Shown here: positions 145-4,398 of the stretch, piece after piece
Layout of the letters: the number at the start of each line of letters is the position of its first letter
Numbering within the stretch: the first letter of the stretch is position 1
Translations under genes and position numbers: made by a program
Notes under the pieces: model-generated
Told to the model about the DNA's origin: nothing
Database searches by the model: none
What the model saw: the letters and a program-made list of their open reading frames with translations, nothing else
Source: a virus
Lineage: Duplodnaviria > Heunggongvirae > Uroviricota > Caudoviricetes
Strand: one strand, 5' to 3'
Virus record (IMG/VR): IMGVR_UViG_2778261570_000013
DNA: 4,399 nucleotides

Positions 145-672
145 ATGACCACTATTACCAGAGAAAGCGCGGAGATTAAATCATTTATCACTGGTTTCCT
201 GAGCGATCCGGCGCACGATAACCAATCTTCAAACAGCCTGCTTACTAATGTGTTTCGTATCGCACTGGCATCGCTGGAAGCAGTATCGGATGAACGGGCA
301 GCCTATGAATTATTTATGGAGAAGCGTTTCGGGGGATCTGTAGATCGCCGCAGGGCAAAAAATGGCGATGGCGAATACATGGCATGGGATATGGCGATTG
401 GCTGGATTATCTGGTGTCACCGCGCCGCCATGCCTCAGGCCGGAAACTTTCGGGAAAATAAGAATTCGTCAACCAGCTCCCCGGCAACTCCGGATGATTG
501 GATAAGCTGTAGTGAGCGAACATCAGGCAAACAGGTTATCGAATTGACAATGCTGGTTAAACAATTGGTCAGTCAACTGAAAAAAGCAAAACCTGATTGC
601 AAATTACCAGATAGGGCGATGGATTATCTTTTGCGGAACGTACTGATAAGTGTGGAGGGTGTTTTACGATGA
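145..672 (+). CDS. Hypothetical prophage protein, 175 aa (MTTITRESAEIK...), function unknown
   Basis: Long ORF in the provided track (67..672, opened by TTG). The first ATG in frame is at 145, preceded by AGGAG at 134-138 (6-nt spacing). The stop TGA at 670-672 overlaps the ATG of the next small ORF. I do not recognise the family. Confidence 0.6.
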   Translation: MTTITRESAEIKSFITGFLSDPAHDNQSSNSLLTNVFRIALASLEAVSDERAAYELFMEKRFGGSVDRRRAKNGDGEYMAWDMAIGWIIWCHRAAMPQAGNFRENKNSSTSSPATPDDWISCSERTSGKQVIELTMLVKQLVSQLKKAKPDCKLPDRAMDYLLRNVLISVEGVLR

Positions 673-752
673 CCTGGCCTGAGGCATTCACAACGGTAGG
701 AATTGCAATGGCGGTGGCGATGGTGGTGTATTCAATTTGCCGCTGGGGATAA
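669..752 (+). CDS. Putative 27-aa hydrophobic micro-protein (MTWPEAFTTVGIAMAVAMVVYSICRWG)
   Basis: ATG 669-671 overlaps the upstream stop (ATGA at 669-672), a classic translational-coupling arrangement. The product is dominated by one hydrophobic stretch long enough to be a transmembrane helix. It is short and could be chance. Confidence 0.3.
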   Translation: MTWPEAFTTVGIAMAVAMVVYSICRWG

Positions 753-759
753 AAACGGT

Positions 760-787
760 TTGCGGGAAAAGGGGAGTTAAGTAAAAT
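760..787 (+). promoter_or_regulatory. Candidate sigma70 promoter for the hok mRNA (-35 TTGCGG 760-765, 16-bp spacer, -10 TAAAAT 782-787)
   Basis: Hexamers read by eye. The predicted start near 794 coincides with the 5' arm of the long-range complementarity at 792-805. Confidence 0.35.
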
Positions 788-791
788 TGCT

Positions 792-841
792 GCGGGTGCT
801 TGAGGCTATCTGCCTCGGGCATGAACACCAACGGCAGATAG
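792..841 (+). other. hok mRNA 5' leader elements: tac-like 5' segment (792-805) and a 9-bp perfect inverted-repeat hairpin (806-814 / 833-841, 18-nt loop)
   Basis: CTATCTGCC at 806-814 is the exact reverse complement of GGCAGATAG at 833-841. Segment 792-805 is complementary to 1168-1182. From memory, the motif GCUUGAGGCU.UCUGCCUC resembles the 5' end of plasmid R1 hok mRNA; this was not aligned. Confidence 0.5.
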
Positions 842-962
842 AGAAAAGCCCCAGTTAACATTACGCGTCCTGCAAGACGCTTAACATTAATCTGAGGCTC
901 AATCCATGCTGAACACATGTAGGTTAGCCTCTTACGTGCCGAAAGGCAAGGAGAAGCAGGCT

Positions 963-1118
963 ATGAAGCAGCAAAAGGCGATGTTAATCGCCCTGATCGT
1001 CATCTGTTTAACCGTCATAGTGACGGCACTGGTAACGAGGAAAGACCTCTGCGAGGTACGAATCCGAACCGGCCAGACGGAGGTCGCTGTCTTCACAGCT
1101 TACGAACCTGAGGAGTAA
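963..1118 (+). CDS. hokD: Hok/Gef family type I toxin, 51 aa (small membrane-depolarising toxin)
   Basis: Translation MKQQKAMLIALIVICLTVIVTALVTRKDLCEVRIRTGQTEVAVFTAYEPEE has the Hok hallmarks: N-terminal transmembrane helix, then TRK.LCE.R.R.G..EVA.F.AYE. It matches my recollection of E. coli HokD/RelF. AAGGAG at 948-953 lies 9 nt before ATG 963. The track ORF 906..1118 is an in-frame upstream extension. Confidence 0.88.
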   Translation: MKQQKAMLIALIVICLTVIVTALVTRKDLCEVRIRTGQTEVAVFTAYEPEE

Positions 1119-1125
1119 GAGACCC

Positions 1126-1147
1126 GGCGAGGGAGAAATCCCTCGCC
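1126..1147 (+). other. Stable hairpin just after the hok stop (9-bp stem GGCGAGGGA/TCCCTCGCC, GAAA loop); probable mRNA 3' structural element, not a terminator
   Basis: Perfect 9-bp inverted repeat with a GNRA-type tetraloop and no following U-tract. Confidence 0.4.
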
Positions 1148-1167
1148 ACCTCTGATGTGTCAGGCAT

Positions 1168-1182
1168 CCTCAATGCACCCGC
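1168..1182 (+). other. fbi-like 3' element complementary to the hok mRNA 5' end
   Basis: CCTCAATGCACCCGC at 1168-1182 pairs antiparallel with GCGGGTGCTTGAGG at 792-805: 14 base pairs with one bulged T at 1174. Confidence 0.5.
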
Positions 1183-1186
1183 ACTT

Positions 1187-1210
1187 AACCCGCTTCGGCG
1201 GGTTTATTTT
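1187..1210 (+). terminator. Rho-independent terminator of the hok transcript
   Basis: Stem AACCCGC (1187-1193), TTCG loop, GCGGGTT (1198-1204), then T-rich TATTTT. Confidence 0.7.
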
Positions 1211-4166: not shown

Positions 4167-4242
4167 GGCCCTTTAGCTCAGTGGTGAGAGCGAGCGACTC
4201 ATAATCGCCAGGTCGCTGGTTCAAATCCAGCAAGGGCCACCA
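4167..4242 (+). tRNA. tRNA with anticodon CAU, Ile2 (lysidine) type, ileX/ileZ-like
   Basis: Hand-folded cloverleaf: acceptor GGCCCTT/AAGGGCC, D-stem GCTC/GAGC, anticodon loop CTCATAA, T-loop TTCAAAT, encoded CCA. It is near-identical to my recollection of E. coli ileX. Confidence 0.85.
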
Positions 4243-4243
4243 A

Positions 4244-4320
4244 CCGCCACTAGCTCATCAGGAAAGAGCGTCAACCCTTTAAGTTGAGTGTGCGAGGTTC
4301 GAGTCCCCGGTGGCGGTCCA
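4244..4320 (+). tRNA. Atypical tRNA-like gene, formal anticodon UUU (Lys-type) with C at position 33 and one T-stem mismatch; identity uncertain, possibly a pseudo-tRNA
   Basis: Acceptor CCGCCAC/GTGGCGG pairs 7/7, D-stem GCTC/GAGC, anticodon stem TCAAC/GTTGA 5/5 with loop CCTTTAA, T-loop TTCGAGT, T-stem CGAGG/CCCCG 4/5, encoded CCA. Only 1 nt separates it from the previous tRNA. Confidence 0.5.
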
Positions 4321-4322
4321 GT

Positions 4323-4398
<76 letters not shown>

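Follow-up and report, generated by a model that had tools for sequence, protein, structure and literature searches.

Results

A hok cassette with complementary RNA ends

The window analysed here is a stretch of 4,399 nucleotides from a Caudoviricetes virus (IMG/VR record IMGVR_UViG_2778261570_000013), in which positions 760-1210 are very probably a type I toxin-antitoxin cassette of the hok/mok/sok kind, complete and belonging to the hokD/hokW lineage. The toxin gene, hok, is an open reading frame (ORF) of 51 amino acids at 963-1118 on the plus strand, which is the strand of all features below unless stated otherwise. It is preceded by a Shine-Dalgarno (SD) sequence, GGAG, at 950-953, belongs to the Pfam family HOK_GEF, and is identical in nucleotides to Escherichia coli K-12 hokD across the ORF. 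The second gene, mok, appears in the ORF list as a frame of 70 amino acids at 906-1118, the coordinates to which mokW of phage VT2-Sakai also maps; it is in frame with hok and would encode an N-terminally extended Hok. The Pfam match (PF01848) in this longer ORF has E = 3e-23 and 81.6 bits, against a cut-off of 22. In the hok/sok system of plasmid R1, mok overlaps hok in a different frame; the in-frame N-terminal extension found in the window is as in mokC.

The two ends of the predicted hok mRNA are complementary. The segments GCGGGTGCTTGAGG (792-805) and CCTCAATGCACCCGC (1168-1182) pair through a helix of 8 bp (792-799/1175-1182) and another of 6 bp (800-805/1168-1173), i.e. 14 bp in total, with T1174 bulged. 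They correspond to the translational activator element (tac, 794-805), the 5' partner of the end-pairing, and to the fold-back inhibitory element (fbi, 1168-1182, with a conserved core at 1168-1180), its 3' partner. An initial annotation, made from the letters alone, had proposed this bulged complementarity, together with a 9-bp leader hairpin at 806-841, a terminator at 1187-1210 and a transcription start near 794, and the present analysis recovered all of them. The minimum-energy fold of 792-1210 contains exactly the helix 792-805/1168-1182, the leader hairpin (806-814/833-841) and the terminator stem (1187-1193/1198-1204), and a terminator scan returned the same intrinsic terminator (7-bp stem, 4-nt loop and T-run, with the hairpin at 1187-1204). 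Regarding the start, the Rfam model RF01794 matches from 794 to 968, and a -10 hexamer lies 6 nt upstream of this first matched base in almost all of the 38 hok loci described below. The match spans model positions 1-157, the full length of the model, and scores 113.5 bits against a gathering score of 59, so that the covariance-model check suggested by the initial annotation finds an entire hok-type leader.

One might object that the complementarity between 792-805 and 1168-1182 is a chance match devoid of structural role. In fact, moderately strong duplexes do arise by chance, since the same 5' 16-mer reaches -23.1 kcal/mol with some flank windows within the 4.4-kb window. Yet its duplex with the 130 nt that follow the hok stop has an energy of -27.3 kcal/mol, when shuffled 16-mers give -16.2 +/- 2.1 kcal/mol and none of 200 reaches the observed value. 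The complete fold of 792-1210 is also far more stable than expected, with -180.6 kcal/mol against -128.4 +/- 6.0 kcal/mol in 100 dinucleotide shuffles (z = -8.74). The comparison of homologues, to which we now turn, bears on the same objection.

Conservation and covariation of the end-pairing

A scan of one genome per species yielded 53 loci with Hok identities of 60-100%, in 37 of which Rfam placed the 5' end. We compared 38 diverged hok loci, from the genera Escherichia, Kluyvera, Photorhabdus, Pantoea, Erwinia and Citrobacter. In the raw MAFFT alignment the 5' half of fbi is one column out of register in loci lacking the bulge, so that columns 9-14 of helix 1 understate the pairing. Pairing was therefore redone sequence by sequence, with the 12-nt tac defined by Rfam and its best partner sought 35-75 nt after the stop. 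This position-restricted search found a tac/fbi duplex of 10-12 bp at stop+45 to +56 in 36 of the 38 sequences. The pairing is maintained through compensatory exchanges: GGGUGC/GCACCC alternates with GGGCGC/GCGCCC and GAGG/CCUC with GAGA/UCUC, and GAAG/CUUC also occurs. At pair 797:1177 of the MAFFT alignment, for example, there are 22 U-A, 11 C-G and three U-G combinations, two sequences being unpaired. When the full-length structure is laid on the 38-sequence alignment, 46 pairs show changes on both sides, against 34.5 +/- 2.6 in shuffles, and the covariation score is 0.156 against 0.118, with none of 500 shuffles reaching the observed value.

Conservation also delimits the helix. The outermost pairs, 792:1182 and 793:1181, form in just 12 and 10 of the 38 homologues. 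Since these two pairs lie upstream of the probable start and are rarely paired in the homologues, the conserved helix is one of 12 bp (794-805/1168-1180), and bases 792 and 793 are probably absent from the hok RNA. The bulged T1174 is T or C among close relatives.

The conservation of the complementarity in homologous loci, the other check put forward initially, thus comes out positive, compensatory changes included. Since 36 of 38 diverged loci have the partner of tac equally far from the stop, with substitutions that compensate each other, and its loss is confined to decayed loci, we give chance complementarity practically no credence; the shuffle test and this conserved, compensated pairing led us to reject it.

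The two loci that lack the duplex are both decayed, L095 by an insertion sequence (IS) element and L127 by a frameshift in hok. L095 and the K-12 hokC region (L137) are 100% identical. Their homology to other hokC loci stops immediately behind the 3' hairpin, next to which there is an IS4-like element, and fbi is missing; the transposase gene, also IS4-like, is found about 190 bp downstream of hokC. The sequence that replaces fbi in K-12-type hokC is presumably the end of an IS, IS186. L095 serves as an internal negative control for the tac/fbi test.

In IMG/VR, 80 viral loci encode an identical Hok, and 75 of the 79 usable ones have the full leader. Their tac and fbi are almost invariant, the bulged base being the only one to vary, and such loci are too alike to be suitable for the covariation test.

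Two side observations came with the diverged loci. CRISPR-DR4 repeats are found some 100-250 nt upstream of the hok leader in Erwinia sp. (L130, 250-397) and Kalamiella sp. (L132, 362-389), so that in these genomes the hok/sok cassette directly adjoins a CRISPR array. Tandem hok leaders about 530-630 nt apart, i.e. duplicated hok/sok cassettes, occur at L116 (556-703 and 1185-1333) and L108 (1-140 and 533-703), the hosts being Photorhabdus temperata and an Enterobacteriaceae isolate.

Promoter, leader and switch elements

The hok promoter was placed by conservation. Its -10 box, TAAAAT, lies at 782-787, and across the 38 loci a TAnAAT-like hexamer, in a few of them a weaker variant, precedes the first G of the Rfam match by 6 nt. 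Given this conserved hexamer, the hok transcript probably starts at G794. A candidate -35 box, TTGCGG at 760-765, would be separated from the -10 box by a 16-nt spacer and would be weak. A generic sigma-70 scan reported neither the hok nor the Sok promoter, the hexamers of both being below its threshold; in the case of hok this is due to the poor -35. From the start of the Rfam match and the z-score of the fold, the full-length hok mRNA is predicted to span 794-1210, with its 3' end in the T-run past the terminator.

The model RF01794 is named 'sok antitoxin', but its consensus, which comprises the tac/ucb stem, the Sok-target hairpin and the SD/dcb hairpin, has the hok AUG at its end, and hence it models the leader of the hok mRNA. 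In every locus (the window and L090-L133) the match is to the hok-sense strand and extends as far as the hok ATG. In annotations derived from RF01794, both the strand and the extent given for 'sok' could therefore be wrong, the real Sok lying on the opposite strand at 844-914.

Several hairpins and boxes of the leader alternate between folds. The first 33 nt of the transcript (794-826) fold on their own into an 11-bp hairpin (796-806/812-822; -18.8 kcal/mol, z = -5.1), which is the expected counterpart in the nascent transcript of the metastable structure of R1 (PMC9841398). The leader hairpin at 806-841, with its 9-bp stem, is paired in 95.3% of the alignment cells of the homologues, and three of its pairs show double-sided changes. 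GAGG at 894-897, the mok SD, stands 8 nt 5' of the mok ATG (906) and is invariant in the 38 loci. It can be paired by either of two boxes. In the closed, full-length fold, it is masked by the region of ucb, an anti-SD box (AAGCCCC, 846-852), through pairs 847-850/896-899 and 852-854/892-894. In the open fold obtained for the leader alone (794-935), which is that of the Rfam consensus, ucb pairs with tac instead (794-796 and 798-801 with 846-852), and the SD region pairs with dcb (GCCUC, 927-931) in a hairpin at 894-931. The loop of this hairpin, CUGAACA at 909-915, begins with a YUNR-type CUGA, which would be a U-turn as in the R1 sokT. Further downstream, a 3' stem-loop with a 9-bp stem lies between the hok stop and fbi, at 1126-1147; it is present in the fold and conserved in the homologues (helices 17-18). 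By analogy with R1, it is predicted to protect the 3' end of the processed, active mRNA (PMC9841398).

The antisense gene, sok, maps to 844-914 on the minus strand, where its fold was found and where the sokW misc_RNA of AP000422 also maps. An antisense RNA had been anticipated on this strand at roughly 850-960; a predicted Sok gene is indeed there, but at 844-914. Read from 914 to 844, the RNA starts with a single-stranded 5' tail, about 14 nt long and complementary in sequence to the mok start region, and continues with a long stem-loop and a U-run. The stretch from 914 to 843 folds with -30.0 kcal/mol (z = -5.0), and compared with the Rfam consensus the stem-loop contains about 16 inserted nt. 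The Sok promoter, placed with the help of published mutagenesis primers, reads on the minus strand as a -35 box TTGCCT (949 to 944), a 17-nt spacer and a -10 box TAACCT (926 to 921), i.e. 921-949; AGGCAA at 944-949 is invariant in the 38 loci. The antisense RNA, its own promoter, the tail and the stem-loop are thus all present, as far as the sequence can tell. For the cassette as a whole, presence, position, conservation and covariation of every sequence element are established by these analyses.

A side observation concerns the toxin itself. The codon of Tyr47, TAC, is followed by G (1101-1104) and makes the TadA editing motif TACG, and TACGAA is invariant in the 38 diverged hok loci. Adenosine-to-inosine editing that recodes Tyr to Cys has been reported for hokC, hokD and hokE (PMC5630033).

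Relatives of the cassette

The closest experimentally studied relative is the hokW-mokW-sokW locus of the Stx2 phages Sp5/VT2-Sakai and 933W (AP000422), which is 95.6% identical over window positions 785-1190 and, like the cassette of the window, resides in lambdoid prophages. Within the leader and promoter region (760-962) the two differ at three bases. The GenBank annotations of VT2-Sakai sokW, mokW and hokW map to 844-914 (minus strand), 906-1118 and 963-1118 of the window, and tac and fbi are the same except for the bulged base. The hok -10 box is TAAAAT in the window and TAGAAT in the hokW locus, and the 3' ends diverge after about 1190, which results in different terminator hairpins. The place of the cassette also differs: near the right prophage end in Sp5, between the replication genes and Q in the window. 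Oligonucleotides used by Takada et al. 2021 (PMC8621323) have exact matches in the window: YO-351 corresponds to 792-841, YO-349 to 799-823, and the sokW northern probe YO-592 to 884-913, and the probe YO-597 is an exact match as well, while YO-421, the primer for the promoter-less sokW mutant, changes exactly 920-926. The hokW-sokW pair is a working type I toxin-antitoxin system, in which HokW is toxic and sokW neutralises it, RNase III and Hfq contributing partly (PMC8621323). HokD has been used as a toxic control (bioRxiv 10.1101/2025.08.07.668861). Toxicity of Hok and its neutralisation by Sok would be expected of the window cassette given its identity to these systems.

E. coli K-12 hokD (relF), in the Qin prophage, resembles the other half of the cassette. 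It is 98.8% identical to window 949-1205, with an identical hok ORF, and still has the SD of hok, the 3' hairpin, fbi and the terminator as in the window; the downstream neighbours (rem, DUF968/ydfU and Q) are alike too. Everything 5' of about 949 is, however, replaced in K-12 by relBE sequence. With homology starting only at about 949, K-12 hokD lacks the hok promoter, tac, the leader hairpins, ucb, the mok start, dcb, and the sok gene with its promoter. The initial annotation had described K-12 hokD as lying directly behind relBE and lacking the hok-type elements; its position and the missing 5' elements bear this out, but fbi has been retained. K-12 hokD is co-transcribed with relBE (PMC3598666). 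K-12 hokD can be seen to have arisen when relBE sequence took the place of the 5' half of an intact cassette, the breakpoint lying at about 948/949, and fbi was left partnerless. By its sequence the window cassette is a hokW-type leader fused to a hokD-type coding region and 3' untranslated region, and is in effect the intact form of hokD.

Two further relatives are more distant. The hok/sok (parB) system of plasmid R1, the mechanistic prototype, shares the tac/fbi pairing, the metastable hairpin, ucb, the mok SD, dcb and the Sok target, as well as the hairpin for 3' processing and an antisense Sok that has a 5' tail and a stem-loop (PMC9841398). It is plasmid-borne, and R1 Hok is about 44% identical to HokW (PMC8621323). 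The hokC/mokC/sokC (gef) locus has an in-frame mok, an identical tac (GGGTGCTTGAGG) and a Hok about 80% identical, and wild-type Escherichia hokC loci have fbi at stop+48 to +52. It differs by its chromosomal site outside a prophage, its shorter Sok hairpin and, in K-12, by the IS4-like element in place of fbi.

In E. coli the intact form is in the majority, and its annotation as hokW/mokW/sokW is of long standing. Its body (792-1186) is found with at least 80% coverage in 4025 of 5426 complete E. coli genomes (about 74%), mostly at 95-99% identity and annotated as hokD; the K-12-type relE-hokD junction occurs in 1165 of the 5426. The cassette is also present in 102 phage records and on plasmids.

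Neighbouring genes

Downstream of the cassette the window contains a rem-like gene, a DUF968 gene, RusA and the antiterminator Q, then three tRNA genes; in a near-identical E. coli locus (strain E9), cI/Cro-like, O and P-like genes lie upstream. These neighbours place the cassette in the early-right (nin) region of a lambdoid prophage. The tRNA genes (4167-4398, 3' of Q) have the anticodons CAT, TTT and TGT according to ARAGORN, the middle one scoring just 44 bits with Rfam. Stx-type lambdoid phages typically have such tRNA genes downstream of Q. An AT-rich non-coding spacer of about 350 bp (1210-1560, GC about 0.30), with two promoter-like sites and one terminator-like site, separates the hok terminator from the rem-like ORF, and the homology to K-12 and VT2-Sakai stops at or just before it. 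On the other side of the cassette, a hydrophobic ORF of 27 amino acids (MTWPEAFTTVGIAMAVAMVVYSICRWG, 669-752, plus strand) ends just 5' of the hok promoter, its ATG overlapping the stop of an upstream ORF of 175 amino acids (ATGA). Of 28 related loci, 26 have this ORF intact, the amino-acid changes being conservative (e.g. MNWPEAFAITGVAMAIAFLVYVICRWG); it has no annotation in strain E9 or VT2-Sakai, and may encode an unannotated small membrane protein.

Discussion

We showed that the hok gene of this window is accompanied by all the sequence elements of a hok/sok-type RNA switch, and that the pairing between the two ends of its predicted mRNA is conserved and compensated across genera. How the switch might work can be proposed by homology with R1 hok/sok (PMC9841398). 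The weak promoter, with its -10 box at 782-787, would initiate the hok mRNA at about G794, and in the nascent RNA tac would be held in the metastable hairpin 796-806/812-822, which would keep this RNA silent. Once the 3' end is made, tac (794-805) would pair with fbi (1168-1180) and ucb (846-852) would mask the mok SD (894-897), giving a closed full-length RNA that would neither be translated nor bind Sok. Slow trimming of the 3' end as far as hairpin 1126-1147 would remove fbi. Then tac would pair with ucb, the mok SD would shift into the SD/dcb hairpin 894-931, and translation of mok, with the coupled translation of hok, would become possible. As long as the cassette is transcribed, the unstable Sok (914 to 844) would pair with the mok start region, block translation and lead to cleavage by RNase III. 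If the supply of Sok stops, the stable processed hok mRNA would be translated and the 51-amino-acid Hok would depolarise the inner membrane. The transcript ends, the processing, the toxicity and the antitoxin activity of Sok in this scheme would be those of the homologues, hokW-sokW and K-12 HokD.

Several points weigh against reading the cassette as an intact and functional switch. The hok start, the 3' end, the processing and the expression of Sok in the window are predictions. When the full-length structure is compared with controls in which the partner strand was slid along the alignment, 81.8% of cells are paired against 38-44%, but this difference is inflated because the tested structure had been obtained by folding the window, whose sequence is among those aligned. 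For the 3'-truncated RNA (794-1150), the minimum-energy fold has the metastable hairpin and not the tac/ucb stem; thermodynamic prediction thus reproduces the open form for the leader alone and not for the long truncated RNA. We did not count this against the switch since refolding in R1 runs via metastable intermediates and may depart from minimum energy. The toxin is not identical to the one studied in Stx2 phages, the C-terminal tail being …FVDYESEK in HokW and …FTAYEPEE in the window. Finally, the chromosomal hokA, hokB and hokC loci, intact-looking as they are, reportedly did not mediate post-segregational killing when tested by Pedersen and Gerdes (cited in bioRxiv 10.1101/2025.08.07.668861). 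Intact architecture is hence no proof of a killing phenotype.

This last point raises the possibility that the cassette is structurally intact but silent, a hitch-hiking remnant that in single copy has no killing or stabilisation phenotype, like hokA, hokB and hokC. The poor -35 box of the hok promoter, and the promoter scan that reported none, would fit such a remnant. Yet all regulatory elements are conserved between genera and show compensatory changes, which implies selection on the RNA fold. Moreover, the near-identical hokW-sokW has measurable phenotypes as a single-copy prophage locus (PMC8621323), and the intact form persists in about three quarters of E. coli genomes. We thus find a silent remnant quite improbable and favour the reading of the region as a regulated, intact cassette.

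The biological role of this regulated cassette within the prophage is the least certain step, and stabilisation, phage exclusion and, as for hokW, assistance of lysis are all candidates. For exclusion, PMC8621323 cites R1 hok/sok as having lowered the plating of T4 only from a high-copy plasmid. For lysis, hokW-sokW, the closest homologue tested, has a demonstrated role in aiding lysis and phage release after induction: it speeds lysis and doubles phage release after mitomycin C (PMC8621323). The main role of the window cassette might accordingly be to assist lysis upon induction instead of post-segregational killing or abortive infection: with the loss of Sok, Hok would damage the membrane early and release would be faster, and the trigger could be read-through from the early-right operon converging on the Sok promoter. 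Mitomycin C caused sokW RNA to be depleted and HokW to rise in a way that required RecA, and deletion of the locus halved phage release (PMC8621323). In the window, the cassette lies on the same strand as, and between, the early genes and Q, and our scan found no terminator between the upstream ORFs and hok. But hokW sits at the opposite end of the prophage in Sp5, so that the context differs, the transcriptional interference is pure conjecture, and the reported effect of hokW is just two-fold. On balance we consider a main role in lysis a serious possibility, though one falling somewhat short of probable.

Read-through might have further consequences. Upon induction, transcription from the early-right operon could silence the convergent Sok promoter and at the same time produce 5'-extended hok RNAs that escape the tac/fbi closure, making Hok an induction-coupled timer of lysis. 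The hok terminator (1187-1204) could in addition double as a nin-region terminator and make expression of Q dependent on antitermination. This extended scheme is rather unlikely in our opinion.

What do these results mean? The cassette is an already known, ordinary module: its RNA switch is documented, as is its occurrence in lambdoid and Stx prophages, and a near-identical copy has been studied experimentally, so that the finding carries little weight as a discovery. Its value lies more in annotation, as genome pipelines tag the hokD coding sequence alone and overlook that the cassette has, in contrast to K-12 hokD, a promoter of its own together with mok, Sok and the whole tac/fbi switch. 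The one idea here with some novelty is that of read-through. If it were true, the placement of the cassette in the early-right operon would couple the activation of Hok to prophage induction, via transcription over the Sok promoter.

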